Below the pieces are notes generated by a model. It ran no database searches and had not been told where the DNA came from. It saw nothing but the letters and a program-made list of their open reading frames with translations. A stretch of 64,000 bases of DNA, from sequence record PX393109.1; one strand, given 5' to 3'. This document shows, one piece after another, positions 813-64,000 of this stretch; position 1 is the first letter of the stretch; every line of letters begins with the position of its first letter. The stretch comes from a phage. A program made the translations under genes and the position numbers.

Positions 813-1670
813 ATGAATGATATACCGTTAATACCAGTCGATTGTCAGTGGTTGACGCTTCGTAACTGGTTCGCAGCCGGTAAGTCTCAGGATTTAGGTC
901 CTACAGTCGCCTCTACTATCGGTAGTGTAGCGAAGTTGATTAAGGAAGACGGATATAGCTCCGAACTAATCATGCTGTACGATCGGGGTAAGTGGCGATA
1001 CAGACCTAAGGATAAGAATCCAGAGTATAAGGCCAATCGTGAGTACGACGAGAGTTTCGAAGCATTGTGGGCTGCTATGAATGTTCTTCACGAGCAGATC
1101 TTCCCGTCGCTGGGTATTAAATGTATCCAGGTGTCTGGTGTGGAAGCCGATGATTTAGGCTACTACTATGCTCATTCTGGTCGTCCGGTCATGTTACACT
1201 CACGAGACCGAGACTGGTACTTATCCATTAATGAGAATACTTGTGTCCTGAATCCGGATGATGGTTTAGTAGATCTTCCCTGGTTGATGAAGACCTACGA
1301 TCTGGATGATCATAAGGATTACCTCATCTACAAAGCCATCGTCGGGGACGGCTCCGACAACATTCCAGGAGTGGCTACTGGCTTGAAGACTGTTAAGGAA
1401 GCGATTAACGCTTACAAAGATGGTTCGCTAAGCCAATCGGTAGAGTTCCGTGTTCGTTCCAATATGGAGCTAATGCGACTCGACAGGATTCTGACTGATA
1501 CCGAAGTCCACAACATCATTAAGGAGCAGGAGTCTAAGGTACAGATGCAACAGCGTATCTTACCGACTCTGGAAGAGTTCTGTCCAGGTCACAGATTTCC
1601 TCCGTATTTCCATGGTGTACTGGGTAAGTACAACAGATGCGTTACGGCTAAGATACTGGAGTCGGCATGA
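813..1670 (+). CDS. 5'-3' exonuclease / flap endonuclease (FEN family)
   Basis: H3TH-type motif IVGDGSDNIPGV and acidic metal-binding clusters typical of T5 D15/T4 RNase H/Pol I 5' nuclease domain. Confidence 0.8.
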   Translation: MNDIPLIPVDCQWLTLRNWFAAGKSQDLGPTVASTIGSVAKLIKEDGYSSELIMLYDRGKWRYRPKDKNPEYKANREYDESFEALWAAMNVLHEQIFPSLGIKCIQVSGVEADDLGYYYAHSGRPVMLHSRDRDWYLSINENTCVLNPDDGLVDLPWLMKTYDLDDHKDYLIYKAIVGDGSDNIPGVATGLKTVKEAINAYKDGSLSQSVEFRVRSNMELMRLDRILTDTEVHNIIKEQESKVQMQQRILPTLEEFCPGHRFPPYFHGVLGKYNRCVTAKILESA

Positions 1671-4432
1671 AAATGTTAATTGCTGCTGATATTCATATTC
1701 ATGAGTTTCAGCAACATAACTCGGAAGGGTTTCGGCTAAAGCAGTTTATCAGATTGGCTCATCGTATGGTGGAGATGGGTAAGGAACATAAAGTTACTTG
1801 CCTATCTATCGCTGGCGACTTGGTGCATAAGGCTCAGCACGAGCCTAAGATTGCACATGCTACTTCCCAGTTTATGGACATCCTCGGTGAGCAGTTCTCC
1901 GAGATTTACTACATTCTGGGTAACCACGACATTAACTCCAAATCGGTAGATGCTGATCACTATCAGAACTCGCTGGTGCCGATCCTGGCTGGTAAGGCGG
2001 AGTATGTCGATGGTAAGATCCTGAACTTAGGTGGCCGTAAGGTCGCCTTCAGCGACTGGCGTCCGACTCAGGACTTTAGCTTCATCCAGGATAAAGTAGA
2101 TGTCCTAATCGGCCATATTACCCTGTCCTCGATGTTCGGTCAGGAGTTCGACGATACTAAGTACGATCTGGGATTTGCGGGTGACATCCACCGTCCTATC
2201 AGCATCGGTCATACTCACTCGGTGAACGTGCCTATTCCTCATGGGATGGGTGATAGTCAGGAAGGCAGTCTGGTACTGCTGGATCTCAAAGATCTTTCCT
2301 GGCAGCGGGTTCCGGTAGAGTCTGATTCCTTTAAGTACTTAAAGATGTACTGGGAAGATGAGGTTCCTGTCGGATTGGACAATTACCCACATCTGGTAGT
2401 TCGTGAACGAGCTCAGATGATGGATGCTTCACGCATCTCGGTTAAGTCTATTGATGTCGAAGAAGTTATCGATAAAGTCGTTCGGGCTAAAGGTCTTAAA
2501 GATATCCATGATGAGATGTCTACCCACGTTGATCGTTCCGAGTCGGTATTCGACCTCAACTTTACCTTAAATAGCATTAAGGTAGAGAACTTCCGTAGCA
2601 TCGATAAGTTGGAGCTGGACTTTAAGAAAGGTCTGACTTATCTCTACGGCGAAACCGGTAATGGTAAATCCTCGCTGTTACGAGCTCTGAACTACTGCTT
2701 AACTGGTAGCGACAGTCCTCGTAACGTGGTGAGACTCGGTCAGGACCATCTTCTGGTAGAAGTGATGCTGGAGTATGGTGGTCGTGAATTCCTGATCAGT
2801 CGCCATTGGGCTGGTGGTCAGACGTTCCGAGTCTGGATTGATGGCGATGAGATGGATGGCGGAAGTATTCGTGAGCGTGAAGCTAAGCTCTGGGAGATGC
2901 TGCCATTCCTCGAACACTTCGATCTTCTGTACCGCTCCCAGAACAGTCCTCCGTTCCTTAGCCAGTTCGGATTCAACGAGCGTATCAACCTGATAACGAA
3001 GATGCTTGGTCTTACCGTAATTAACCAGTACGAAGCTGTCGCAAAGGCCTCGGCTAAGAACTGTAAGGTAGAGATCGGTAATCTCCAGACTCAGGTTACT
3101 GCTCAGGAAGAAGTCCTTAAGACGATGGAGGATCACGATTTCTCCAGACTCAAGGACGTAAGTGATCTGGAAGAGGCTAAATCCCGAATCCTTCCTCAGA
3201 TTGATGATATTCGTCAGAAGATCCGGGAGCTGGGTAATTTGGATAGTAAGCTACAGAGTCTTCAGATGTTGGAAGACTCGCTGGCTGCGTTCAATATAGA
3301 CTTTAGCGAAGAAGAGGTTAACTCCGCACTCGCTAATGTCCGTGGCGAAATTACTCTGCTAGATGCCGAAGTGTCGGAAGTAGAAGGGAATATTCGTTCG
3401 CTCCATAACCAGAGCGAATCTCTAACTAAGGAGTTGACTCGTCTGGAACAGGAGTTGACTAAGTTAGAGACAGAAATGCGGAATATTCCCACTACCTGTC
3501 CTACCTGTAAACAGTCTCTTAAGGAAGAGGACATTAAGCAGGTACAGAGCTCTATCAGAAGTAAGATGGATGAGCTCGAGACACAGGGATCTGTATCTGT
3601 GTCTAAGTTGGATGCTGTGGAAGCTGAGATAAGTAAGGCTCCTAAGTCTGATGAAATCCGACAGAAGCTGGCTCTTAAGAATAACGAATTAGTCGAACTC
3701 CGTCGTAAGTCCGGTCTGCTAAACGATGTGGCCACTCTTCGCCAGAAGATTCATACCGTCAATAGCGATGTGGAAGTGCTTAAGAATAAGACTAAGTCCT
3801 ATTCCTCCGTGCAAGTTCTGGAAGAGGAAGTCGCTAAGCTGGAACAAGAGCTTATCGAGATTAACTCCACTATCGGAGCTATGGCTACTCTTCGTAGTCT
3901 TAAGTCTCGTATGGACGATGCTCAGACGAAGCTGGATAAGGCTAACTCTGAGCTGGCTACTCTTCAGCCTAAGTATCAGAAGCTGGTGGAGTATCAGAAT
4001 CTGTTCACTAATAGCGGTGACGTAACTGCTTCTATCTTTAAGGAAGTGGCTGCGATGATGACTGGTGGTGATATGGTCATCTCTACCGTTCGTGAACAGG
4101 CTAATGGAAATATCAAGATTGACTTTGATGTTCAATACAAAGTCGGTGAGTTCCTGATTCCGTATTCTGATCTCTCTGGTGGTCAGCAGAACCTGGTGGA
4201 CGTACTGTTCATCGGTAAGCTGATTAGCCTTAGTAAAGGTGCTGGATGCCTGATTCTGGATGAGTCGTTGAAGAATCTGGATGTGAATACTCTGGACATA
4301 GCTATCGATGCTCTCCAGGACATTCCGGTTAATCACATCATCCTGGTTACTCATGTACCTACGTTCCAGAGATATAATACTAAAATCGGTGCCTACCTTT
4401 CCAATAACGTAACTACGTTTATGGAAGAGTAG
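1667..4432 (+). CDS. fused SbcD(Mre11)-like nuclease / SbcC(Rad50)-like ATPase
   Basis: N-term calcineurin-like phosphoesterase motifs (ADIHIHE, GDLVH, GNHD); then Walker A GETGNGKSS, coiled-coil region with CPTC zinc-hook-like motif, signature LSGGQQ and Walker B LILDE at C-term. Confidence 0.75.
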   Translation: MKMLIAADIHIHEFQQHNSEGFRLKQFIRLAHRMVEMGKEHKVTCLSIAGDLVHKAQHEPKIAHATSQFMDILGEQFSEIYYILGNHDINSKSVDADHYQNSLVPILAGKAEYVDGKILNLGGRKVAFSDWRPTQDFSFIQDKVDVLIGHITLSSMFGQEFDDTKYDLGFAGDIHRPISIGHTHSVNVPIPHGMGDSQEGSLVLLDLKDLSWQRVPVESDSFKYLKMYWEDEVPVGLDNYPHLVVRERAQMMDASRISVKSIDVEEVIDKVVRAKGLKDIHDEMSTHVDRSESVFDLNFTLNSIKVENFRSIDKLELDFKKGLTYLYGETGNGKSSLLRALNYCLTGSDSPRNVVRLGQDHLLVEVMLEYGGREFLISRHWAGGQTFRVWIDGDEMDGGSIREREAKLWEMLPFLEHFDLLYRSQNSPPFLSQFGFNERINLITKMLGLTVINQYEAVAKASAKNCKVEIGNLQTQVTAQEEVLKTMEDHDFSRLKDVSDLEEAKSRILPQIDDIRQKIRELGNLDSKLQSLQMLEDSLAAFNIDFSEEEVNSALANVRGEITLLDAEVSEVEGNIRSLHNQSESLTKELTRLEQELTKLETEMRNIPTTCPTCKQSLKEEDIKQVQSSIRSKMDELETQGSVSVSKLDAVEAEISKAPKSDEIRQKLALKNNELVELRRKSGLLNDVATLRQKIHTVNSDVEVLKNKTKSYSSVQVLEEEVAKLEQELIEINSTIGAMATLRSLKSRMDDAQTKLDKANSELATLQPKYQKLVEYQNLFTNSGDVTASIFKEVAAMMTGGDMVISTVREQANGNIKIDFDVQYKVGEFLIPYSDLSGGQQNLVDVLFIGKLISLSKGAGCLILDESLKNLDVNTLDIAIDALQDIPVNHIILVTHVPTFQRYNTKIGAYLSNNVTTFMEE

Positions 4433-10235: not shown

Positions 10236-11618
10236 ATGTCAGATTCAAAGGTAGTTACCTGGGGGACGGTGCTAGTAACGGTGGGTATCATACTCGCCAT
10301 TATGTTAGCTCCCACCCAGTTTGGTGCTGTAATGGACTGGAGTAAGTCTGTATTCATATCTCAGTATGGATTCATATTTACCTGGTCTTCGCTGATCTTC
10401 CTAGCGTTCCTGGCATTCTTTGTATTCAGCAAGCATGGTAACATTAAGCTGGGTAAAGGTGCTCCGAAATATAATCGCTTTACCTATTACTCCATGATGT
10501 TTAGTACCGGTATGGGTGTATCCATGATTTATTATGGTGTACTCGAACCTATGTACCATCAGCAGGAGGGTATGTCCGAACGTCAGAATATGGTAACTAC
10601 CTTCTTTGACTGGGGACTTAACGCATGGGCAGTTTATGCAGTCGTAGGGGTGGCATTCGGGTACTTACTGCATGTACGTGGTGAAGACCGTCCGCTTAAT
10701 CAGTTATTCAAGTCCCGAGCTCTGAATAACCTTAATACGATAAGCTTACTCTTCTCTACCATCATAGGCTTAACCCTGTCGTTCGTCTACGCAGTAGGCC
10801 CGATCAGTTCCGGATTTAAAGAGTTCCTGGGAGTGGATGTTGGTCCTTACACCATTATCGCGCTCCTGACTCTGGGTACTGTACTTAGTGCCGTAACTGG
10901 TGTCGATCGTGGGGTTAAGTGGTTATCCAGATATAATGTAATCGTAGCTCTATCTATTATGGCATTCGTTGCTGTAAGTGGTACATTCTTCGAATACCTC
11001 TGGAAGACCATCACCTATTCTGGTAGCTATCTGCTCCAGATTATTCCTATGTCAGTAAACATCGGCAGTACTGCTGAAGAGAAGCAATGGCTGGCTAGCT
11101 GGCCTTATGCTTACTATGCAGCCTGGGTAGGTTGGGCATTATTCGTCGGAGCGTTTGTGGCACGTATCTCTTACGGCCGTACTATTCGCGAACTGATCCT
11201 CGGATGTGTACTGTTCCCTACCATCATCAGTAACGTCTGGTTTACCGTATTCGGTGTAGCTGGTCTACAACATGGTGCTCAGGATATCTTCCAGCTTCTG
11301 GCTAATTTCCCAGGCGGATGGATATTCTCGGTAATTACCCTCGTGTCTGTGATCCTGTTCTTTATTACAGGTCATGACTCAGCAGGTATTACGGTAGAGT
11401 CCATGACCGCTCCTAGAACTCGTGTATTCTGGATTGTAAGCATGGGTGTAGTTGCTGCTGCACTTAACTGGGCAGGTGGCGACGTAGTAACTGTAACGAA
11501 GACTCTGGTAGCTGTATCGGCTGTTCCGGTACTGATTGGGGTATTGTGTATTCTATTCGGGTTCCTCAAGATCTTTGTACCTAAAGTATTCTTGGCTAAG
11601 GAAACTCCGCCTGTTTGA
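10236..11618 (+). CDS. BCCT-family transporter (betaine/carnitine/choline transporter-like)
   Basis: Multi-TM protein with Trp-rich BCCT signature region AWVGWALFVGAFVARISYGRTIRELILG, as I recall it from BetT/CaiT/OpuD. Confidence 0.7.
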   Translation: MSDSKVVTWGTVLVTVGIILAIMLAPTQFGAVMDWSKSVFISQYGFIFTWSSLIFLAFLAFFVFSKHGNIKLGKGAPKYNRFTYYSMMFSTGMGVSMIYYGVLEPMYHQQEGMSERQNMVTTFFDWGLNAWAVYAVVGVAFGYLLHVRGEDRPLNQLFKSRALNNLNTISLLFSTIIGLTLSFVYAVGPISSGFKEFLGVDVGPYTIIALLTLGTVLSAVTGVDRGVKWLSRYNVIVALSIMAFVAVSGTFFEYLWKTITYSGSYLLQIIPMSVNIGSTAEEKQWLASWPYAYYAAWVGWALFVGAFVARISYGRTIRELILGCVLFPTIISNVWFTVFGVAGLQHGAQDIFQLLANFPGGWIFSVITLVSVILFFITGHDSAGITVESMTAPRTRVFWIVSMGVVAAALNWAGGDVVTVTKTLVAVSAVPVLIGVLCILFGFLKIFVPKVFLAKETPPV

Positions 11619-28501: not shown

Positions 28502-30016
28502 ATGATCGTATCAAAGTCCTTGAATGAATTACACCGTCTTATTGATATGAAAGAAGCAACCTACACCACTCCGGTGCGTTTTTACTTCTCTGATGGTCCT
28601 AAAGAAACTACTATCGGTCGACTGTTTATTTGGGAAATCAGCGGCTATCTTCCAGAGAAAGAAATAGATAAGAAGGAATCTGCGAAGATCGTCTCTTACA
28701 TCAATAATAACTATACTCCGGAAGTGGCTGGTCGCCGACTGCATAAGTTGCAGCAGTTCGGATTTCATAAGGCTACTCAGTCTGGTCTGAGTTTATGTTA
28801 CGACGACACTAAGTTTGACTTCGGTATAGACTTTCCAGCCATGACTCAGGAACTCGGTAAGATGGGGTACGAGGATCGTCTGGCTGCTGCGGATAAAGTC
28901 ATCAACGAATGTACCGATCGCTGGTTTAAGGAAGTAGACCGTCATAATCCGCTGTATGCGATGGGTGTATCTGGTGCTCGTGTATCTCCTCCCCAGGTTC
29001 GTTCGATGGTGGTGGCTAAAGGCCTTCTGGTGGGCATGACTGGCAAGATCATGCCGATGCCGATCATGGAGAACTTAAGCTCTGGATTATCTCCCATCAA
29101 CTACTTCAATACCTGCGGACCTGCTCGTAAGGGTCTGGCTGGTAACTTCTTCCTGGTACCTGCGACTGGTTGGTTTGCTCGCCAGCTGGTTAACTGTTCC
29201 AGAGAGTTGTCTATTGTAGAAGAAGACTGCGGAACTAAGGAAGTAATCACCTTACCTAAGAAATCAGCACTGTATCGATTCACTAGCGACCGAATAATGG
29301 TTACTAAAGAGAATGTGGATCAGCTGGCGGATGAAGAAGGTAATGTGAAAGTCCTTAGCCCTATCACCTGTGAATCAACTAAGGGTGGGGTATGTCAGCA
29401 TTGCTGTGGTATGGATCCCGCTAAGCCTGCTAACTTCTTCCCTATTAACTTCGGTATTGGAACGGCGTCGGCGCAACATATCTCCGAACCATCTACTCAG
29501 GCTGGTCTCCGTGGTAAGCATACATCTGGTTCGACTACGCTTAAGGAATTCGGTACTTCGGTAAGTAACTCCTTAGCCGATATCCTGAAGACGGTAGGTG
29601 GCCGAGGAACTGCGGTGGCTCAGGTATCTGAGTCTAAGTATAAGTGCATCACGGATCTTGCCCACGAAACTGGATCAGCAATTAAAGGTGCAGAGTTAGC
29701 TGCGATTCAGCTTAAGCACATCTTCGACGACATCGGTATCGGTATCGCATCGATTCACCATGAGATCATTGCTCGCGGTTGTACTGATCTGGTTAAGATG
29801 AATAATGGACGAATCGGTGTTCGCAGCATGGGAGATAAGGGTGAGGTACTGGCGATTAAAGCCGATGCCATCCCTACGAAGCATCCCAGCTGGTTGAAGT
29901 CTATTGGCCATGGTAACGTTAAACGTAGACTTACTGATGCAGTGCTTAATGGTGATGTTAGCTTCGGAACCCGTTCCGAGATGATCATTGCTGGGTTAAA
30001 TCTGAATAACAAATAA
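28502..30016 (+). CDS. RNA polymerase beta-prime-like subunit, C-terminal half (bridge helix/trigger loop region)
   Basis: NTCGPARKGLAGNFFLVPATGWFARQLV resembles beta-prime region F (STHGARKGLADTALKTA..GYLTRRLV); ASAQHISEPSTQAGLRGKH resembles trigger-loop AAQSIGEPGTQLTMRTFH. Confidence 0.75.
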   Translation: MIVSKSLNELHRLIDMKEATYTTPVRFYFSDGPKETTIGRLFIWEISGYLPEKEIDKKESAKIVSYINNNYTPEVAGRRLHKLQQFGFHKATQSGLSLCYDDTKFDFGIDFPAMTQELGKMGYEDRLAAADKVINECTDRWFKEVDRHNPLYAMGVSGARVSPPQVRSMVVAKGLLVGMTGKIMPMPIMENLSSGLSPINYFNTCGPARKGLAGNFFLVPATGWFARQLVNCSRELSIVEEDCGTKEVITLPKKSALYRFTSDRIMVTKENVDQLADEEGNVKVLSPITCESTKGGVCQHCCGMDPAKPANFFPINFGIGTASAQHISEPSTQAGLRGKHTSGSTTLKEFGTSVSNSLADILKTVGGRGTAVAQVSESKYKCITDLAHETGSAIKGAELAAIQLKHIFDDIGIGIASIHHEIIARGCTDLVKMNNGRIGVRSMGDKGEVLAIKADAIPTKHPSWLKSIGHGNVKRRLTDAVLNGDVSFGTRSEMIIAGLNLNNK

Positions 30017-31595: not shown

Positions 31596-33164
31596 ATGAA
31601 ATTAAAGTTATCTATTGCAACTGATGATGTAATCCGTGCCGAGTCCAGTGGTGAAGTAACCAGTATGGGCATGTATAACCTTAAGTTCCATGATCCTAAG
31701 CCATTCACTGGTGGGTTATTCTGCCAGCGTATCTTCGGACCTCTGGTAACTGGTAAGTGTGAGTGTGGTAACCAGCTGGTTATGGGAGCGCCTCCGTGTA
31801 ATGTGTGCGGTATGGTAGCTATGCATCGTGAATCTCGTCGCCGCCGTATGGGTCACATCGAGACGATCGTTCCTTATGTGAATCCATTAGCTATCAAACG
31901 TATGGCTGCGCTATTCGGATTCCCAGAGCGAGAATTCGGTCAGTTCCTTATCGGTAAATATCGCTTCGTAGTTCAGGAAGCTGGTCTGGCAGCTAAGATG
32001 GTTGGTGATGATCGGGAGCGGGTTCGTGAGGCTAATGCTGCTCTTCCGGAATATGAAGATCGTGAGAAGTATGCGATGTTCTACTCTAACACTATCCCAG
32101 TTCAGGATAGCACGAAGCGCCTCGCAGTGGTAATGATTAAGATCCGCCGTATGTCAGAGCACGAGTCATCAGAGTTAGGTCTTCTGAGTCTTATCCAGGC
32201 ATTGGTAGCTAATCATGCTGATATGAAAGCCTATATCGAAGAGTGCGAAGATCCTACAGTAATCAATAGTGGTTATACAGAGTTCAGCGACTTCTATAAC
32301 ACTACGGTGCTGGTGAATCCTCCTAGCTATCGTGATGTTGGCATCAGCAATGGGGTAATGTCGTATCATCCGACTAACTTACTCTACCTGCGAATCCTGC
32401 GCCATGCTATCCGTATCAGAAGTATTCGCGATACTGCCGAGGCCAGCGAAGCGTTGTTATCTCTGATTCCTCGTGAATCTATTGTAATGCAGAAGATGGT
32501 TAACGGACTAATCCTGGAGGGCACTAAGGACTATCGAGGTAACTTAATTAAGCCGATGATCAATAATCTTAAAGGTAAGGGTGGTCGAATCCGTGGTAAC
32601 CTGTTAGGTAAGCGCGTTGATTACTCCGGTCGTTCTGTAGTTACTTCGGCTCCGCATCTTCCGCTGGATACTCTTGGTGTACCGTTCAAGATGATGTACG
32701 AATTACTTCAGCCAGACATCCTGGGTGAGCTGGAGAACTTATATGGTGGCCCGACTAACGAAGGGTACAACATGTACGACATCAGCAATAAAGTCCAGCG
32801 TATGTACAAGAATAAGTCCCGAGTAGCTCTGGAAGTATGCTGGAGACTGTGTGAGAATGCCACGGTGTTCATGAACCGTGCACCATCCCTACACCGTTAC
32901 TCAGTATGGGGATTTAAGGTCAGACCTCACATGGGTAAGGAGATTCAGGTTCCTCCGATGGCTATGGGTGGTCAGAACATGGACGTGGATGGTGATACCG
33001 CAGCAATTCACCGTGTACTGACTGATCGTGCTTGCTGGGAAGTACGTAGCCTGATGATGGTTAACCAGAACATCAACAGCTCTATTGACTTCGATAGTCC
33101 GGTCGTGAAGCCGTCCCACGAAATGGTGGTAGGTCTGTTCCAGGCAACTACGGTGGATATGTAA
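31596..33164 (+). CDS. RNA polymerase beta-prime-like subunit, N-terminal half (zinc ribbon to catalytic loop)
   Basis: GGLFCQRIFGP...CECG...CNVCG...RRRRMGHIE resembles the beta-prime N-terminal zinc-binding region; NMDVDGDTAAIH matches catalytic NADFDGDQMAVH near C-terminus. Confidence 0.75.
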   Translation: MKLKLSIATDDVIRAESSGEVTSMGMYNLKFHDPKPFTGGLFCQRIFGPLVTGKCECGNQLVMGAPPCNVCGMVAMHRESRRRRMGHIETIVPYVNPLAIKRMAALFGFPEREFGQFLIGKYRFVVQEAGLAAKMVGDDRERVREANAALPEYEDREKYAMFYSNTIPVQDSTKRLAVVMIKIRRMSEHESSELGLLSLIQALVANHADMKAYIEECEDPTVINSGYTEFSDFYNTTVLVNPPSYRDVGISNGVMSYHPTNLLYLRILRHAIRIRSIRDTAEASEALLSLIPRESIVMQKMVNGLILEGTKDYRGNLIKPMINNLKGKGGRIRGNLLGKRVDYSGRSVVTSAPHLPLDTLGVPFKMMYELLQPDILGELENLYGGPTNEGYNMYDISNKVQRMYKNKSRVALEVCWRLCENATVFMNRAPSLHRYSVWGFKVRPHMGKEIQVPPMAMGGQNMDVDGDTAAIHRVLTDRACWEVRSLMMVNQNINSSIDFDSPVVKPSHEMVVGLFQATTVDM

Positions 33165-36602: not shown

Positions 36603-37016
36603 ATGAAGAAATTAATTGCTGCTTCTTTGATTCTGGCATCAGTCACAGCCCATGCTGGTAAAGATCCTCGTGTAGCTTCTGCTATGGAAGCTGATGTCAT
36701 TACTGCACTGTTGGCTAAGTCGTATGTTGAAGAGTGCCCAGAGTACAGTCTTGCTGAAGTGTTGTACTCTGCTAAAGAAGCGATGGTCCTGCCTGTTATG
36801 GATCATGGGCATAAGTCAGCAATCGTCCAGTTTAATGGCATAGGGTCTGATGGTAAGCCAGCAGTGATCCGCTCCCTGATTCATCTGGATCCGGTAGAAG
36901 TAGTTACAACTTTATCCGTAGAGAAAACTGGTGCGACTAAGGAAGATCTCAGTGACGCTAATGATCTGATCCTTCCATCCCTATGCACCGTAGCTGCGAA
37001 CGAATCTTTCCGTTAA
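36603..37016 (+). CDS. putative secreted/periplasmic protein (signal peptide)
   Basis: N-terminal MKKLIAASLILASVTAHA signal-peptide-like sequence. Confidence 0.5.
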   Translation: MKKLIAASLILASVTAHAGKDPRVASAMEADVITALLAKSYVEECPEYSLAEVLYSAKEAMVLPVMDHGHKSAIVQFNGIGSDGKPAVIRSLIHLDPVEVVTTLSVEKTGATKEDLSDANDLILPSLCTVAANESFR

Positions 37017-48085: not shown

Positions 48086-48295
48086 ATGGCTATAACGATA
48101 GGAGTATTGATAGGGGTAGTTATGATACTCCTGTTCAGATTGGCTTTATTAAAAGATCGCTTATCTAAGCTAAACTCAGATCTTAATTCCGTTAAGACTT
48201 TGCTGGGTAAGTGTAACGATTTACGTAAAACGAAAGGAACTAACGATGAAAAAGATTCTTGTAGTTGCTCTTCTTGCAACAAGCGGAATGGCTAG
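48086..48295 (+). CDS. small membrane protein (69 aa)
   Basis: N-terminal TM helix ITIGVLIGVVMILLF. Confidence 0.4.
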   Translation: MAITIGVLIGVVMILLFRLALLKDRLSKLNSDLNSVKTLLGKCNDLRKTKGTNDEKDSCSCSSCNKRNG

Positions 48296-48464
48296 CGCAT
48301 CAGTAAATATCGAATGCTTCGGTCCGGATGGTCGGTCTCTGTATAGTGAGCCTAATGCTCAACGCTATGTAATCGAGACTGCGGCAACCACCATCTGGGA
48401 CAGTAGTGGTAATCCAGTAGTGATCACTGCTGCGGCACCATGCATCATTACTCCGAATAAGTAG
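48246..48464 (+). CDS. small secreted protein (signal peptide, 72 aa)
   Basis: MKKILVVALLATSGMASA signal-peptide-like N-terminus; RBS GAAAGGAAC. Confidence 0.45.
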   Translation: MKKILVVALLATSGMASASVNIECFGPDGRSLYSEPNAQRYVIETAATTIWDSSGNPVVITAAAPCIITPNK

Positions 48465-50895: not shown

Positions 50896-51111
50896 ATGAT
50901 GATGGGTATACTCGAAAATATTGTAACCCTTATCTGCATGACTGTTCTAGTATTGGGCCTTTATTATATGGGAGCATCATGGTGGTCGGCTATACCTGGG
51001 CTATTGGTATTCAATCTTAGTTCTGTTAAGTATAAGGAAACTAAGTCTGTTGGTCACCCAGAGAATACCACACCAACTGGGGAGGTTGCTGCTCCTCCTA
51101 AGGACAGATAA
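50896..51111 (+). CDS. small membrane protein (71 aa)
   Basis: Two hydrophobic segments; start uncertain (GTG 50884 possible). Confidence 0.4.
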   Translation: MMMGILENIVTLICMTVLVLGLYYMGASWWSAIPGLLVFNLSSVKYKETKSVGHPENTTPTGEVAAPPKDR

Positions 51112-58904: not shown

Positions 58905-59282
58905 ATGTACAACGCATTCAACGGACCTCATCCAGAGGCTCTGCCGGTAATCGACGAAGCTAATCTGGTAAAGCGCTTCCGCGAGAGCTATGCTAGCCAG
59001 GTTGATTTAAAACAAATCATAGTTCTGGCATGTAATCAGCGTAAAGCTGCTATCCAGGATAAAATCGACCAGTTAAATAAGGCCAAAGTTCGTTTAATCG
59101 ACAGTCTGGCTGGTGAAGGTACTAAGTTGGGTGCGGCTGATATTAGCGACCAGGTCAGAGGCATGGTCGCAGATACCAATAATCTCCAATCGTTAATCAA
59201 AGAGATTGACGACTCGGTGAACATGGTATTCTCAGCTCTGGGTGGGCTACTGGAAGAGCCCACCACAGAGAAATCTCTGTAA
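58905..59282 (+). CDS. hypothetical protein (125 aa)
   Basis: ATG after TTAGGAGAAATT. Confidence 0.45.
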   Translation: MYNAFNGPHPEALPVIDEANLVKRFRESYASQVDLKQIIVLACNQRKAAIQDKIDQLNKAKVRLIDSLAGEGTKLGAADISDQVRGMVADTNNLQSLIKEIDDSVNMVFSALGGLLEEPTTEKSL

Positions 59283-59313
59283 TCCGTCACGGATGATTAA
59301 TTTGGAATGAACT

Positions 59314-59676
59314 ATGACTTCTGCCGATTGCGTAGCTATGGTCGTCTACTATGAGGCCAGGGGAGAGTCGGAACGTGGGCAGTTAGCTGTAGCCCACGTG
59401 GTACTCAACCGAGCGAAGAAATACGGTATAAGCCCATGTAAGGTAGTTAAAAACAGGAATACCTTTCCGTGGTACCGTCACATCTCTTACCAGAATATGA
59501 AAGATCCTAAATCTAAGGCATCTGCTATTCATATTGCGGCAAGAGTTAAATACAGTGAAGATCCCACATTCGGGGCTACTCACTTTCATAATGTAAAGGT
59601 TAGGCCTAACTGGAAGGGCTATAGAATGACAGCCAGAATAGGCGACCACAAGTTCTATAAGAAGGTAAAGAAATGA
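59314..59676 (+). CDS. cell-wall hydrolase, SleB/CwlJ-like (Hydrolase_2 family)
   Basis: AMVVYYEARGESERGQLAVAHVVLNR matches the SleB-type catalytic-domain start. Confidence 0.65.
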   Translation: MTSADCVAMVVYYEARGESERGQLAVAHVVLNRAKKYGISPCKVVKNRNTFPWYRHISYQNMKDPKSKASAIHIAARVKYSEDPTFGATHFHNVKVRPNWKGYRMTARIGDHKFYKKVKK

Positions 59677-60227
59677 CTTTGAGTAATATGGATATAGACA
59701 ACCTAATCGGTATGTTGGGAGGTACAGCAGTACTCGTTCTAACAGTCCGTCCTATCGACCAGGCTGAGAGCTATGATATAGTAGTCCGAGAGTCTAGCTT
59801 TGAATTCGAGCAAGCTCTTCGTCATGCTATGCACGATCTGACTATTACCAATAACGGTATTAAGCACCGTCTACTTAAAGTGTCGATAGGTATTAAATCG
59901 TCCGATGTATTCGCTAATCCTGATATCGTAAAGACCTGGGAAATCTGCGATAATCCACACACTCCTAAGATGAACGAAGCTATCGAGCGCGACCAGCAGT
60001 ATCAAGAAGTCGTTCATCAGGCGGTAGAGCTAGTATTTTTACTTAGCAACTGCCAGACTATTTATTCAGCGTATGAAGGCAAGGTCGATATGACTCAAGA
60101 GTCGGTTCGGGAGGCCGTTCGTGTATCTCTTTTCAATATCTTATCTGGTAAGTCAGAAACCAAGATGGATGCTGAAGTAGAGAAGGTAATTAAACCATTC
60201 CGGGAATTATTTGTACGGAGTATCTGA
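59673..60227 (+). CDS. hypothetical protein (184 aa)
   Basis: ATGA overlap start; N-terminal hydrophobic segment. Confidence 0.4.
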   Translation: MTLSNMDIDNLIGMLGGTAVLVLTVRPIDQAESYDIVVRESSFEFEQALRHAMHDLTITNNGIKHRLLKVSIGIKSSDVFANPDIVKTWEICDNPHTPKMNEAIERDQQYQEVVHQAVELVFLLSNCQTIYSAYEGKVDMTQESVREAVRVSLFNILSGKSETKMDAEVEKVIKPFRELFVRSI

Positions 60228-60469
60228 TGGACTTGATGAAATTAAACATCAAACTAGAGGGAGTGTGTAAGGCAGGGATAGTGAAGGTATGCTATAACTG
60301 TAAAGAGCACCCCACTCTACGTCTTGACGAGAATAACCACTTACATCTGGAGTGTCCTAACTGTAAATGGGACGACCATGAAGTGGTTACTGATTTAGAT
60401 ATGGAAGATGAAGCAGTTGCTGATCGTGAGCTGGGGCTTATGGTCGAGATGTGGAATCGTCATAACTAA
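60227..60469 (+). CDS. small zinc-ribbon protein (80 aa)
   Basis: CYNC...CPNC motifs. Confidence 0.4.
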   Translation: MDLMKLNIKLEGVCKAGIVKVCYNCKEHPTLRLDENNHLHLECPNCKWDDHEVVTDLDMEDEAVADRELGLMVEMWNRHN

Positions 60470-60480
60470 ATTAATCTACA

Positions 60481-60523
60481 CAAAAATGGGACTCACTCTA
60501 TCACGAGTGAGTCCCATTTATTT
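60481..60523. terminator. bidirectional rho-independent terminator at strand switch (GGGACTCACTC-TATCAC-GAGTGAGTCCC flanked by A-run and T-run)
   Basis: 11-bp perfect stem between convergent + and - gene blocks; aaaaat upstream, atttattt downstream. Confidence 0.75.
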
Positions 60524-60854
60524 AGTGCTTAAAGATGCCGATGATGGCGTCGTTAAACAATCCTACCAGTACACTAATAATTGCTAACGCACCACTCCAG
60601 AATTTAATCTTGTCATTTACTTCCTTAATCTCCTTCCTTAGATCATCCTGCTCATCTTCAAGGTCAGAAATCTTCTTAGACATGAAATTCTGTGCAACGA
60701 CTAGCTCACGGATATCCGCTAATATCTCCGTCTGCTTACGAGAAGACTCCATAAGTTGATCAAGGATTACTCCCTGAAACTTCTGGTTAGATTCAAGTCT
60801 CGCTAGCCTATCGAGTTGGTGTCCACCGAACTCAGACTCTTCCCTCTCGCGCAT
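60522..60854 (-). CDS. coiled-coil protein with C-terminal TM segment (110 aa)
   Basis: Charged helical region then hydrophobic ALAIISVLVGLF at C-terminus; last gene of the minus-strand block. Confidence 0.4.
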   Translation of the reverse strand: MREREESEFGGHQLDRLARLESNQKFQGVILDQLMESSRKQTEILADIRELVVAQNFMSKKISDLEDEQDDLRKEIKEVNDKIKFWSGALAIISVLVGLFNDAIIGIFKH

Positions 60855-60864
60855 ACAAGATTCC

Positions 60865-61074
60865 TCACTTCTGATTGCTCTCTAGGCAATCTATATAAGA
60901 TACCAATTTAGCTAATTCAGCGTTAGGAATCCTGATCCCGTCTTTTTCCGCTATCGCTGCTATCGGTGGACGGTCGCACCTTACCTTCGGCGTCTGCATC
61001 TGTACCGGTAGGCTGTTGCAGCTTACCAAACTTAGACTCCCAAGCACCAGTAGGGTCATTTTTAATTTCTTCAT
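60865..61074 (-). CDS. outer-membrane lipoprotein, o-spanin-like (Rz1-like)
   Basis: Signal peptide with lipobox LVSC and Pro-rich mature region; embedded/overlapping in a different frame with 60923..61153. Confidence 0.5.
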   Translation of the reverse strand: MKKLKMTLLVLGSLSLVSCNSLPVQMQTPKVRCDRPPIAAIAEKDGIRIPNAELAKLVSYIDCLESNQK

Positions 61075-61153
61075 CTTTCTTCTCCCGAGAGCGAGTCTGC
61101 ATAGCAGATACGAGTAGGGTAATAAGCTGAAGAATAAGAGTAAGAGCTTTCAT
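60923..61153 (-). CDS. small protein with N-terminal TM/signal segment (76 aa); possible spanin partner
   Basis: Strong RBS AAAAGGAG before ATG; MKALTLILQLITLLVSA hydrophobic N-terminus. Confidence 0.4.
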   Translation of the reverse strand: MKALTLILQLITLLVSAMQTRSREKKDEEIKNDPTGAWESKFGKLQQPTGTDADAEGKVRPSTDSSDSGKRRDQDS

Positions 61154-61156
61154 ACC

Positions 61157-61573
61157 TTACTCCTTTTTACCCTCTGGATTTTTGATCAGAGACTTACCGT
61201 AATCAAGGGCATCAATAGCCTGGGTAGCCTTACTCACTAGGTGCGGATCATCCTGAGTTTGGACTACGTCGGAAAGAACCTGCTTAGCTTTATCCATGGT
61301 CTGCACTTTCTGCTCATCCTGAGCGGCAGCTTTCTTATCTACCCTGGCAGCTGATTTAGGCAAGTTCAGAGCGACGAAGTTTAAGATGGACGATGCATAA
61401 CCGAGGTATTTCTTAATTACCCCAATGTATTCGTCGTCTTTAGTATTAGGAGTGATCTTAGCGATCTTCTCCAGAGCTTGCACCAGCACTGATGCGAAGC
61501 CGATGATGGCTAGTGCAAGAGCGATGTAATCATCGATCTTGGATCCATCAAGTACATCCAGGATATTGTCCAT
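61157..61573 (-). CDS. membrane protein, holin- or i-spanin-like (138 aa)
   Basis: N-proximal TM YIALALAIIGFASVLVQAL followed by helical charged domain; immediately downstream of endolysin gene. Confidence 0.45.
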   Translation of the reverse strand: MDNILDVLDGSKIDDYIALALAIIGFASVLVQALEKIAKITPNTKDDEYIGVIKKYLGYASSILNFVALNLPKSAARVDKKAAAQDEQKVQTMDKAKQVLSDVVQTQDDPHLVSKATQAIDALDYGKSLIKNPEGKKE

Positions 61574-61587
61574 TATTGATCACCATA

Positions 61588-62235
61588 TTAAAGAGTTAAA
61601 GTCTGATTTGCTCTGCGTAGTACAGGCAGTCGGTCAGGTACGGTCGCAGCAGACCCATTTATCTTCTGGGTTACTTTGGTGAATGCGTCCTGATCTGCTA
61701 ATTGATTTAATTTATTTTTATCCCAGAACCACCCTGCAGTAAGCATGATCGTTTCGAAATCCGTCTCTACTAACTCTGGATCTTCTACCAAACGGTCATC
61801 GCCAAAGATACTCAAAGAGGCCTCTCGATAGTTAGCTTTGCCAGTTAGATGCATAGCTCCACGGCCAATGTACTTATACCCATCTCCGCTAGCTGGAGTT
61901 CCGTTACCCATGCGATTAGCATACACCTGATTGGCTAACTTCTCAGGGTCGCGTATGTAAGCATTAGCATTAAGCTTACCAGGTTCACCGCGAAGAGTAA
62001 ATCTACTCGGCCACACAGCTACCAGACGAGACGCAGAGGTATAATACAGGGACTCCACAAACTTAGTGTAGTCCCGAGTTTCAAAGGCAGTCTGCGCCAT
62101 AAAATAGCGCAGACGACGATTGGTATTGATACCGTAACGCTCGATAGTAGTATTAATGGCGGGTAGCAGCTTTTCCAGCACTTCCGTTGAAGTTGTCGGG
62201 AGGAACTTCTTCAGCTGGTCAAGTGTAACGCTCAT
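61588..62235 (-). CDS. endolysin, glycoside hydrolase family 19-like (chitinase-class lysozyme)
   Basis: YFMAQTAFET, YKYIGRGAMHLTGKANY typical of phage GH19 endolysins. Confidence 0.7.
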   Translation of the reverse strand: MSVTLDQLKKFLPTTSTEVLEKLLPAINTTIERYGINTNRRLRYFMAQTAFETRDYTKFVESLYYTSASRLVAVWPSRFTLRGEPGKLNANAYIRDPEKLANQVYANRMGNGTPASGDGYKYIGRGAMHLTGKANYREASLSIFGDDRLVEDPELVETDFETIMLTAGWFWDKNKLNQLADQDAFTKVTQKINGSAATVPDRLPVLRRANQTLTL

Positions 62236-62259
62236 ATTATACCCCTACCTAGTTAAGGC

Positions 62260-62436
62260 TCACTTCTGAGCCTGTTTTCTCTGGAGAGCCACCTGTAGTG
62301 ACTCTATTTCGACCCATCCCTGGCCATCGAATCTCCATCTTTTACCCTGCAAAGACTGGAAGATTGAGTTTACCGGCGCTACTGCCGGTATTTCTGTTTC
62401 GAATCCAGTCTTGAACCATGGTTCGTTGCTAGACAT
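62260..62436 (-). CDS. hypothetical small protein (58 aa)
   Basis: Minus-strand ATG with GGAGTAAAC RBS between tail-fiber-like and endolysin genes; below track cutoff. Confidence 0.35.
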   Translation of the reverse strand: MSSNEPWFKTGFETEIPAVAPVNSIFQSLQGKRWRFDGQGWVEIESLQVALQRKQAQK

Positions 62437-62445
62437 GTTTACTCC

Positions 62446-64000
62446 TTAACTAAAGTATGCGCGAACGTTCTTAACGAACGGACGGTTAACTGGGTTGGAT
62501 AGAGACAGGGTGATACGGATGCGGGTATTAGCCACATTTACTCCTGACAGTTTGTAAGGTACAGTGTACCACCCATCTCCCAGAGCGGTTCCGGTACTCC
62601 CTGACAAGGCTACCCATTCGCTATCCTTCTGGTACTGAACGGTTACGCTAGCACCAGATGGTACATACTGATCCAGGATGACGTTAAGAGTTACCGGAGT
62701 AATGTTACCGTTAGGGATACTGAACTGACGCTGGGTATATACCCCAGGAGTATCAGTAGTACCAGAACGGAAGATGACGCCACCGAAGACCTTCGGAGAT
62801 ACGGTAGGATCACCGGTATTAAACTCAGCCATCAGACTGAAAGTACCAGAGAAGTTCTCAGTATACGTTTCAGAGTTAACGTTGAGGTTAATGTTATCAG
62901 TACCGTTAGTGAGATAGAATCTCACGGAGGTATTTGCCGGAGTCTCAATATCAGCAGTAAGCGAAAGACTGTTGGTATTGCTAGCTACCGTTACAGAACC
63001 CAAGTTAACAGTGCGAGTAGAACTATAGTCAGCAGCATGGAGACGATACACCAAGTCTTCATCCTGAACTGGAGACCAGGTAGATTCGTTCGCAGAAGTC
63101 AGAAGAACACCCTGAGCTGGCTGATTCACTACATACTGCTGCTTATCGGGATCATATCCGTTTATCTTAGCTGTGGCTACCTTACCCTGATAGTTAGCCG
63201 TAGCAACTATGATGGCATACTCAGTACCACCAGTCACTGTTACTGGATAACGAAGATTGATCTTGTTCCACCCCAGTACACACTTATTAGCCGGAACTTC
63301 ACCGAAGCCATAAAGCTGAGTGGAGTTAGGGATACCTACCAAAGTAGGGACCAGTTTAATCTGGAGTGTGTTAGTAGGCAGCTCAGTCAGATAGATAGAT
63401 ACTGCGTTAATATCACGAGTAGCCTGGATAGTGAAGGTCTGAGCCACTGGATCGTAACCCCACGGAACAGCACCACCAGTCCAGTTCTGACCGTAGTCGA
63501 CTTTACCAGAGTTGTAGATGGTTACGGTACCGCGAGTAATAGCCTTAGTGGTCTTACCAGTAGCAACATACTGATACGTACCGTTAACCAAACCACCAGA
63601 CAGCATATGAGCATACTGTACAGCACCGTTATCATCCGCAGTCAAGGTAACCACTGGCAGGTTACGGAAAGTAAGATCAATCTGTTCGTTGGCAGCATAC
63701 CCAGATAGCTTAATCGTGATCGTAGTATCTACCGGCAGAAAGCCACCATGGAAGTACGACCAGAAGCTACGAGTATCGATCTTAGCTGGTGAAACAGAGA
63801 TCATCGCCTGAGGTACCTGACCAGACCCAGCATACGGGTTGATGCGGGTGTCCTTAGTACGGAATTCCTGAGACTGAATTACGGTATCAGTGAATGATAA
63901 CATAATACCATCAGGAGCCAGACTGGACTGCCGTGAGAAAGATGCTCCGATGAACAGCTGACCATCATCGATAATGGCGTTGTTGGTTAATCCAGCATCA
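62446..64000 (-). CDS. virion structural protein, tail-fiber/receptor-binding-like, 5' partial (frame stays open to window edge)
   Basis: Long Ser/Thr/Asn/Gly/Val-rich beta-type sequence; the in-frame reading upstream of the first Met (63903) has no stop to position 64000. Confidence 0.55.
   Translation of the reverse strand, partial: DAGLTNNAIIDDGQLFIGASFSRQSSLAPDGIMLSFTDTVIQSQEFRTKDTRINPYAGSGQVPQAMISVSPAKIDTRSFWSYFHGGFLPVDTTITIKLSGYAANEQIDLTFRNLPVVTLTADDNGAVQYAHMLSGGLVNGTYQYVATGKTTKAITRGTVTIYNSGKVDYGQNWTGGAVPWGYDPVAQTFTIQATRDINAVSIYLTELPTNTLQIKLVPTLVGIPNSTQLYGFGEVPANKCVLGWNKINLRYPVTVTGGTEYAIIVATANYQGKVATAKINGYDPDKQQYVVNQPAQGVLLTSANESTWSPVQDEDLVYRLHAADYSSTRTVNLGSVTVASNTNSLSLTADIETPANTSVRFYLTNGTDNINLNVNSETYTENFSGTFSLMAEFNTGDPTVSPKVFGGVIFRSGTTDTPGVYTQRQFSIPNGNITPVTLNVILDQYVPSGASVTVQYQKDSEWVALSGSTGTALGDGWYTVPYKLSGVNVANTRIRITLSLSNPVNRPFVKNVRAYFS

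Follow-up and report, generated by a model that had tools for sequence, protein, structure and literature searches.

The window examined in this study is a stretch of 64,000 nucleotides (nt) from phage record PX393109.1. The last five genes of its minus-strand block probably make up a lysis cassette of the holin-endolysin-spanin type that closes the late (structural) transcription unit, and a small SleB/CwlJ-like hydrolase encoded on the plus strand (w120) is, on the same reading, a separate accessory enzyme and not an entry enzyme. In the proposed cassette, a 215-amino-acid (aa) GH19 endolysin (w215) is followed by a 138-aa protein with one transmembrane (TM) segment (w138), the holin candidate, by a 76-aa candidate for the inner-membrane spanin subunit (i-spanin; w76), by a 69-aa lipoprotein predicted to be the outer-membrane subunit (o-spanin; w69), and by a 110-aa protein with a C-terminal TM segment (w110). 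This assignment was made because the trio of w138-, w76- and w69-like genes is conserved behind unrelated endolysins, and because the w138 family occupies the slot in front of recognizable spanin genes in Shewanella phage 1/4 and Zobellviridae phage KZY1. The source is an IME392-like myovirus of Escherichia coli; over positions 59000-63000, the window has 97.7% identity with Escherichia phage vB_EcoM_IME392 (MH719082.1) and 94.2% with EP_H11 (OP688485.1). Nearly all genes in these two records are labelled 'hypothetical protein'. More divergent relatives, L007 and L011, were taken from public assemblies. Every open reading frame (ORF) named in an earlier note on this DNA is present where that note had placed it (Table 1).

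BLAST-level searches with w69 and w76 found only two close relatives, and the homologues in other phages were recovered through synteny and profiles. The trio is present in Aeromonas phage phiARM81mr and Aeromonas prophages behind a CHAP endolysin, in Vibrio phage X29 and X29-like contigs behind an Amidase_3 endolysin, and in Vibrio phage 252E42.2 behind a GH108 endolysin. In these Aeromonas and Vibrio loci, the homologue of w138, a member of phrog_9685, lies directly behind the endolysin gene and is followed by a w76-like gene of 58-76 aa. The w76-like proteins start with a short hydrophobic helix, continue with a charged stretch and bear the motif DPxxAFxxxFG/N; they belong to PHROGs 9219, 21600, and 24944, all of unknown function. 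In phiARM81mr and 252E42.2, an unannotated lipoprotein ORF overlaps the w76-like gene. In X29, the homologous lipoprotein is annotated as 'Rz-like spanin' and lies about 550 bp away, without overlapping the w76-like gene. The w69-homologous lipoproteins of X29 and phiARM81mr both fall in the 'Rz-like spanin' family phrog_8971 (E = 2e-31 and 6.5e-5, respectively). In Shewanella phage 1/4 and in KZY1, the gene after the phrog_9685 member encodes an i-spanin (phrog_1026, E = 6e-16 and 5e-18) and is overlapped by an o-spanin gene (phrog_1275). In KZY1, the M15-like endolysin gene is followed by the phrog_9685 member, the spanins, a 166-aa ORF and terminase; since no other membrane protein is present, the phrog_9685 protein is the sole holin candidate there. 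Unannotated ORFs for o-spanin-type lipoproteins, each overlapping the gene 3' of the phrog_9685 member, were located at 2830-3036 in L003 (phiARM81mr), 2762-2983 in L005 (252E42.2), 2830-3033 in L013 (an Aeromonas prophage contig), 2765-2977 in L019 (Shewanella phage 1/4) and 2207-2428 in L020 (KZY1).

The endolysin, w215, matches PF00182 GH19 with 33.8 bits (cut-off 25.5) and the endolysin family phrog_181 with an E-value of 8e-60. It aligns end to end with the solved GH19 phage lysins 9eoi, 8p8e, 9ms6, and 4ok7 (SPN1S endolysin; E = 2.8e-31 to 1.2e-15), which are likewise single-domain proteins of about 210 aa. The closest of these alignments is that to 9eoi (2.8e-31), with residues 3-213 of w215 aligned to residues 3-208 of the chain; it is well short of identity. 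The segment FMAQTAFET...FVES of w215 aligns with FLAQVGHES...LVEN of 9eoi, and both catalytic glutamates are kept (FET/HES and VES/VEN), as they are in the alignment with 8p8e. In GH19 enzymes, this pair of glutamates serves as general acid and general base. No hydrophobic N-terminus and no signal or signal-anchor-release segment was found in w215, which is therefore expected to depend on a holin. The ratio of non-synonymous to synonymous substitution rates (dN/dS) of the gene is 0.03-0.10. Overall, w215 is a soluble GH19 endolysin with predicted muralytic activity.

The protein encoded behind the endolysin, w138, has a single strong TM segment rich in Gly, Ala and Ser (TM score 2.26), in line with the earlier note, which had seen a TM protein in this position and had not assigned it a role. 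Its N-terminal 80 residues match phrog_9685 (E = 2.2e-16), a family found in 118 phage records and represented by 167 protein clusters (E ≤ 0.001), all labelled 'hypothetical'. In the cassettes compared, the place of the family is always between an endolysin and a spanin pair. The N-terminus of w138 is acidic; the TPxxKDD motif is invariant, and an amphipathic helix is also present. A 60-aa helical extension at the C-terminus occurs only in this phage group. The AlphaFold2 model is all-helical, with a predicted local distance difference test score (pLDDT) of 55, which is too low for a reading of topology. As a small protein with at least one TM segment and a charged helical tail, encoded between endolysin and spanins, w138 has the characters of the holin class, and in comparative context it is the strongest candidate for the holin.

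The w76 and w69 genes form the overlapping pair of the cassette. The w69 gene starts in the +1 frame of w76, 79 nt after the w76 start; the overlap covers 152 nt, the last 50 codons of w76, and w69 extends 58 nt past the w76 end. The Rz/Rz1-like overlap proposed in the earlier note thus holds as a spanin-type overlapping pair, of the 'overlapped' P2 lysB/lysC type and not of the 'embedded' type. The w69 signal, MKKLKMTLLVLGSLSLVSC, has a positive n-region (MKKLK), a hydrophobic core and the lipobox L-V-S-C with Asn, not Asp, at +2, and it fits the signal peptidase II pattern [LVI][ASTVI][GAS]C with a non-Asp residue at +2 (MKKLKMTLLVLGSLSLVS-C-N). The lipobox, which the earlier note had put forward for checking, is therefore real, and it is present in all relatives and homologues of w69. 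The mature part has 51 aa with five Pro, two more Cys and a conserved C-terminal helix, AELAKLVSYIDCLE. A Shine-Dalgarno sequence, GGGAG, lies 7 nt upstream of the w69 start. The match of w69 to phrog_3198 'Rz-like spanin' (E = 6e-4) is confined to the signal part, and the gene is unannotated in both IME392 and EP_H11. These features identify w69 as an o-spanin, a lipoprotein with predicted lipidation and predicted location in the outer membrane. Its partner, w76, opens with a marginal TM helix that leads into a charged stretch and, after that, into sequence rich in Pro, Gly, Ser and Asp; it also carries the conserved motif DPTGAWESKFG and ends in a disordered tail. Together, w76 and w69 would have about 108 aa in the periplasm, inside the range of 62-300 aa that a census of spanins gives for this combined length; the census also lists i-spanins of 47 and 64 aa (PMC6139136). 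On these grounds, w76 is an atypical i-spanin candidate, with topology and role both predicted.

Both frames of the pair are conserved. The w76 and w69 ORFs are open in five relatives, with in-frame indels only, down to amino-acid identities of 63% (w76) and 75% (w69). The synonymous rate (dS) in the shared segment is 0.17-0.24 against L007 (both frames) and 0.40-0.61 against L011, whereas in the neighbouring genes it exceeds 1 or is saturated; the low dS is therefore a signature of dual coding. The conserved parts of the two proteins are complementary, with DPTGAWESKFG lying over the tolerant w69 signal peptide and the C-terminal helix of w69 encoded past the w76 stop. A fusion of w69 and w110 into a single spanin (u-spanin, T1 gp11 type) by readthrough or frameshifting was considered and rejected: the ORFs are separate and do not share a frame, and the frame of w110 is closed by a stop 30 nt before its ATG. 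In L007, w69 and w110 share a frame, and two stops lie between them. At the 3' end of w69, a patch at 60869-60928 (minus strand) with a single open frame is 90-100% identical in nt sequence to L007 and L011, whose flanks are 40-75% identical. A hairpin would pair 60922-60931 with the w110 Shine-Dalgarno sequence (z = -2.4); it is kept in L007 and out of register in L011. The patch has no Rfam match, and its 20-mer is unique in the window. Comparable identity peaks lie on other conserved protein motifs, at 62092-62121 (GH19 catalytic region) and 61440-61469 (TPNTKDD region), so the patch may come from local recombination or constraint rather than from a dedicated RNA element.

The last gene of the cassette encodes w110, described in the earlier note as a C-terminally anchored coiled-coil protein; the protein is indeed helical with a C-terminal TM segment. 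The TM segment spans residues 90-108 and is preceded by a charged N-terminal helix of about 85 aa; the last 24 or so residues are rich in small residues (G88, A89, A91, S94, G98). AlphaFold2 models residues 2-109 as a single helix of about 16 nm (pLDDT 89). Because w110 has no signal sequence and its N-terminus is highly charged, the long helix is most likely in the cytoplasm. Among 5.8e9 proteins, only four clusters were found for w110, all at least 85% identical to it. A full HMMER scan, covering 1.84e9 representatives, returned nothing beyond marginal coiled-coil matches, and tblastn against phages gave two close relatives only; a match in IMG/VR (L006) was discarded as a spurious coiled-coil match. 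By these searches, w110 is an orphan restricted to this phage group. Matches to the XhlA-type family phrog_1193 (E = 0.0057) and to DUF2951 (E = 0.048; 14.3 bits against a cut-off of 26.7) are both sub-threshold. Like w110, the PBSX XhlA/DUF2951 proteins combine a charged helix of about 85 aa at the N-terminus with one TM segment at the C-terminus, and they too are encoded in lysis cassettes. However, their hosts are Gram-positive and not Gram-negative, and at similarities of E = 0.006-0.05 architecture alone is shared. An 89-aa tail-anchored protein of similar architecture is encoded upstream of a holin-like gene in the X29-like cassette L015, and a protein with a TM segment and a coiled coil follows the spanins in Shewanella phage 1/4. 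Kinship of w110 with the L015 protein was rejected for lack of sequence similarity, and the lysis modulator ORF52 of BSPM4 (PMC11657625) is unrelated to these proteins. Our guess is that w110 is an accessory of lysis timing.

Reports of a second small hydrolase far from the holin exist for several phages, and w120 belongs to this group. It matches PF07486 Hydrolase_2 over the whole profile (positions 1-100 of 100; E = 2.5e-20; 73.4 bits, cut-off 27) and phrog_938 'endolysin' with an E-value of 1e-22. Its YYEARGE motif (E14, E18) aligns with YGESRGE of the Bacillus cereus SleB catalytic domain (4F55), with E14 on the first Glu of that motif; we take the catalytic glutamate of w120 to be the equivalent of residue E157, by a numbering of our own. 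The catalytic glutamate is essential for SleB's activity as a lytic transglycosylase (PMC12331253). The claim of the earlier note that the phage encodes two different muralytic enzymes is borne out by above-threshold Pfam matches for both w120 and w215, and in both the catalytic motifs are intact. The w120 protein is not a SleB orthologue: against TIGR02869 it scores 34.3 bits with an equivalog cut-off of 236.5, only model positions 90-201 (the catalytic half) match, and the N-terminal peptidoglycan-binding domain of spore SleB is missing. It is, by its domain match, a member of the Hydrolase_2 family but not SleB itself. No TM, signal or anchor segment was found in w120. Both hydrolase genes are under strong purifying selection; for w120, dN/dS is 0.11 against L007 and 0.26 against EP_H11, the latter on two substitutions. 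Homologues were detected with tblastn in 1112 phage records, including T5-like, rV5-like (next to rIIA), PB1/PAK_P1-like and phiEcoM-GJ1 phages and others. In T5-like, rV5-like/Phapecoctavirus, PB1- and PAK_P1-like phages, the small Hydrolase_2 genes encode single domains of about 120-130 aa that are 30-41% identical to w120 and, like it, lie among early/middle genes, away from holin and endolysin. Genome descriptions also report 'multiple endolysin ORFs' or 'second endolysins', where a protein with a SleB domain is encoded far away from the holin (PMC11180984, PMC10793346). A small SleB-like hydrolase beside a lysis endolysin is, judging from these genomes, a common phage pattern.

Several observations weigh against the roles proposed for w138 and w76. 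No match of w138 to curated holin families was found in Pfam or NCBIfam, and phrog_9685 is listed as of 'unknown function'. Other small membrane proteins of the plus-strand block, such as the one encoded at 50896-51111 with two TM segments, are also possible holins; none of them matches a holin PHROG. Aeromonas prophages already have a PF16083 Phage_holin_3_3 protein upstream of the endolysin, and Vibrio phage 252E42.2 has a sub-threshold Phage_holin_3_2 match (E = 0.0097) there; the phrog_9685 member of these phages may be an antiholin or an accessory or partner of the spanins. The w76 helix (residues 2-20) scores 1.59 on the Kyte-Doolittle scale over 19 residues, against a cut-off of 1.6. 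By eye, it carries a polar stripe (K2, T5, Q9, T12, S16, Q19), and the Aeromonas and Vibrio homologues have Asp or Glu in mid-helix. Unlike the usual periplasmic domain of an i-spanin, w76 has no predicted coiled coil and no Cys. In addition, homology between the w76-like proteins and the phrog_1026 i-spanins was rejected, as none was detectable (hhalign probability 0.5%); the two are therefore positional analogues only. In a rival reading, w138 would itself be the true i-spanin, or an obligatory anchor for w76 with the marginal helix of w76 packed on the w138 TM segment, and the holin would be encoded elsewhere. Such an arrangement would suit the constant adjacency of phrog_9685 and w76-like genes, which often overlap by 4-35 nt and stay together even where the lipoprotein gene is displaced (X29), and the constancy of the trio while the endolysin varies (GH19, CHAP, Amidase_3, GH108, M15-like). 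It would also suit the holin-like genes upstream of the endolysin in the Aeromonas and 252E42.2 cassettes, a w76 helix too polar for a confident stand-alone TM segment, the i-spanin-like size of w138 and the helical post-TM domain of its low-confidence model. We nevertheless consider it doubtful. Shewanella phage 1/4 and KZY1 have a full i-/o-spanin pair of the conventional kind behind the phrog_9685 member, which is therefore not needed as i-spanin there; most members of the family are short (68-80 aa) and have only some 40 residues past the TM segment; and w138 has no Cys and an acidic N-terminus that, by eye, favours an N-out/C-in orientation with the long tail in the cytoplasm. It is likewise improbable that the trio (phrog_9685 one-TM protein, w76-like DPxxAFxxxFG protein with an amphipathic, marginally hydrophobic helix, and lipoprotein with an ELLxYIxxLE helix at its C-terminus) is an undescribed envelope-disruption module, in which the inner-membrane side of the spanin would consist of two polypeptides or the w76-like protein would enter the membrane only upon triggering by the phrog_9685 protein, with w110 as a new lysis-timing factor in E. 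coli phages. That w76 is no gene, its alternative frame over the lipoprotein gene's start being open by chance, is hardly credible. In the overlap, the w76 frame does evolve faster than the w69 frame (dN/dS 0.54-1.6 against 0.28-0.46), and w76 itself has no PHROG or Pfam match. However, its ATG lies 3 nt past the w138 stop behind a strong Shine-Dalgarno sequence (AGGAG), the ORF is open in all five relatives, its 26 non-overlapping codons are under purifying selection (dN/dS 0.22-0.49), and its homologues in X29-like phages are free-standing, independently called genes without an overlapping lipoprotein gene.

The holin function could also belong to w110, as holin or antiholin, with w138 only a modulator; by analogy with XhlA, the oligomerizing TM segment with its small residues would then form the lethal lesion. 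Against this stand the absence of w110 homologues outside the phage group, whereas the w138 family is conserved in lysis cassettes, the lack of sequence similarity to the L015 protein, and XhlA/DUF2951 matches far under their thresholds. In its favour are the position of w110 as last cassette gene, its good Shine-Dalgarno sequence, its purifying selection (dN/dS 0.21) and an architecture resembling XhlA/DUF2951 and the proteins of the L015 and Shewanella phage 1/4 lysis cassettes. The assignment is unlikely, and w138 is preferred as the holin candidate. The earlier note had further suggested that one hydrolase is virion-associated and used for entry, and the other for lysis, which would make w120 the entry enzyme and the GH19 protein the lysis enzyme. 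Two unrelated muralytic folds do occur in the one genome, and no functional test of phage Hydrolase_2 proteins was found in the literature consulted. Yet the w120 gene lies in the plus-strand block with dUTPase and dCTP deaminase genes, outside the structural block, and its product is a bare 120-aa catalytic domain without a virion-attachment module; small genes of this kind are widespread in phages that have other tail lysins. A better entry candidate is found in the nearest relatives, where a 945-aa tail-module protein encoded outside the window includes a GH19 domain (residues 702-821; E = 2e-9, EP_H11). Its gene lies at 79881-82718 of EP_H11 (OP688485.1), corresponding to L017 29881-32718 on the minus strand, and at 75944-78799 of IME392, where the protein is 94% identical. 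In the core, over a stretch of 106 residues, the tail GH19 domain and w215 share 35% identity, and the domain retains the HES motif. EP_H11 labels the protein 'murein transglycosylase D precursor', and in the IME392 record it is a 'putative glycoside hydrolase'. This protein is probably a virion-associated entry lysin. Its presence leaves no reason to give the entry role to w120, for which that role is very unlikely; the division of labour suggested in the earlier note was therefore not upheld.

In the lysis model preferred here, soluble w215 would build up in the cytoplasm until w138, acting as holin, permeabilizes the inner membrane and releases it. Once the peptidoglycan has been cut, w76 in the inner and w69 in the outer membrane would work together as a two-component spanin to disrupt the outer membrane. 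The accessory protein w110 could, as a guess, regulate holin timing from the cytoplasmic face. The remaining hydrolase, w120, would be a separate cytoplasmic accessory muralytic enzyme with a lytic-transglycosylase-type fold; it is presumably transcribed alongside the early/middle nucleotide-metabolism genes and would reach the cell wall only once the holin has triggered. This arrangement resembles the P2 cassette (Y holin, K endolysin, lysA, lysB/lysC), in which the lysis genes are also clustered at the end of the late genes, an extra membrane protein is also encoded between endolysin and spanins, and lysC starts within lysB in the +1 frame and runs past its end, as w69 does with w76. Differences from P2 are the absence of sequence homology to Y, lysA, lysB, and lysC, the order of endolysin, one-TM protein and spanins in the window, the GH19 type of its endolysin, and the size of w76, which is half that of LysB and has no coiled coil. 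Lambda Rz/Rz1 has in common with w76/w69 an inner-membrane subunit and a small proline-containing outer-membrane lipoprotein in the +1 frame, adjoining the endolysin. However, Rz1 is wholly embedded in Rz while w69 only overlaps w76, Rz has two coiled-coil helices and Cys while w76 has neither, and no homology was detected.

The cassette stands at the meeting point of two convergent gene blocks (Table 1). The plus-strand block, with replication and nucleotide-metabolism genes (dUTPase, dCTP deaminase and others), ends at 60469, and the minus-strand block, with the structural genes, ends at 60522. A hairpin between them is predicted to act as a bidirectional terminator, with folding energies of -27.4 and -26.0 kcal/mol on the two strands (z = -9.0 and -9.8) and a U-run on the minus-strand transcript. 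In the terminator hairpin (60484-60519), the 6-nt loop is inverted relative to the close relatives, reading GTGATA in the window and TATCAC in IME392 and EP_H11, with the stem conserved; the difference looks like a small hairpin-loop inversion. The two hydrolase genes, said in the earlier note to flank the strand switch, are on opposite strands as described but do not abut it: w120 is third from the end of the plus-strand block and w215 fifth from the end of the minus-strand block. No Pfam match was found for w184 by profile search.

Table 1. Features at the junction of the two gene blocks, with positions in the window
Feature	Position	Strand	Description
w120	59314-59676	+	SleB/CwlJ-type hydrolase, 120 aa
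w184	59673-60227	+	184 aa; conserved in L007-L010; dN/dS 0.14 against EP_H11
w80	60227-60469	+	80 aa; two CxxC pairs (zinc-ribbon-like); final gene of plus-strand block; conserved in L007-L010
Terminator	60479-60519		Predicted bidirectional intrinsic terminator; 15-bp perfect stem, 6-nt loop
w110	60522-60854	-	110 aa, C-terminal TM segment
w69	60865-61074	-	Lipoprotein, 69 aa
w76	60923-61153	-	i-spanin candidate, 76 aa
w138	61157-61573	-	One-TM protein, 138 aa
w215	61588-62235	-	GH19 endolysin, 215 aa
w58	62260-62436	-	58 aa, soluble, no TM segment; between 1014-aa tail-fibre-like gene and endolysin; conserved in L007 and L008; dN/dS 0.07-0.10

Observations were also made elsewhere in the window. 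The '485-aa' ORF at 62446-64000 (minus strand) covers just the C-terminal part of a DUF4815 tail-fibre-like protein of 1014 aa, whose gene continues past the window end; since the relatives have an intact gene, the short ORF is produced by the window boundary and does not reflect a truncation. Homologues of RNA polymerase beta'/Rpb1 are encoded on the plus strand at 28502-30016 (domains 3-5) and 31596-33164 (domains 1-2; E = 3e-23), with the C-terminal half of beta' upstream of the N-terminal half. This points to a non-canonical RNA polymerase encoded by the phage, and late promoters are therefore perhaps not of the sigma-70 type. A full-length BCCT betaine/carnitine/choline transporter (PF02028, E = 4e-92), an unusual phage cargo, is encoded at 10236-11618 (plus strand) in the replication block. 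The 921-aa protein encoded at 1667-4432 (plus strand) combines a Metallophos nuclease, a Rad50/SMC-type ATPase and a zinc-hook-like match, and looks like a fused Mre11-Rad50/SbcCD-like protein. In the early-gene block, a 137-aa lipoprotein (MKKLIAASLILVSVAAC...) without PHROG match is encoded at 36603-37016 (plus strand) and is possibly a superinfection-exclusion or receptor-blocking lipoprotein. In addition, a 69-aa protein with an N-terminal TM segment, a coiled coil and a Cys-rich tail (48086-48295, plus strand) is encoded in overlap with a 72-aa protein that has a cleavable-looking signal peptide and no lipobox (48246-48464, plus strand). This early-region pair has no family matches and looks like a spanin arrangement.

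Overall, a lysis cassette with an accessory SleB-type hydrolase is a well-known layout, common among large phages, and what is added here is modest, namely a slot for phrog_9685 and the w76-like families. A new biological question would arise only if the two-protein inner-membrane arrangement or w110 proved mechanistically new. The results bear on the annotation of the two deposited relatives, which misses the o-spanin altogether and gives either a hypothetical label or a wrong one to the candidates for holin and i-spanin and to the GH19 lysin of the tail. The presence of phrog_9685 between endolysin and spanins gives a testable function to a recurrent family of unknowns. For lysin mining, the phage would supply three distinct muralytic units: a free GH19 enzyme, a tail-borne GH19 domain and a SleB-type hydrolase.

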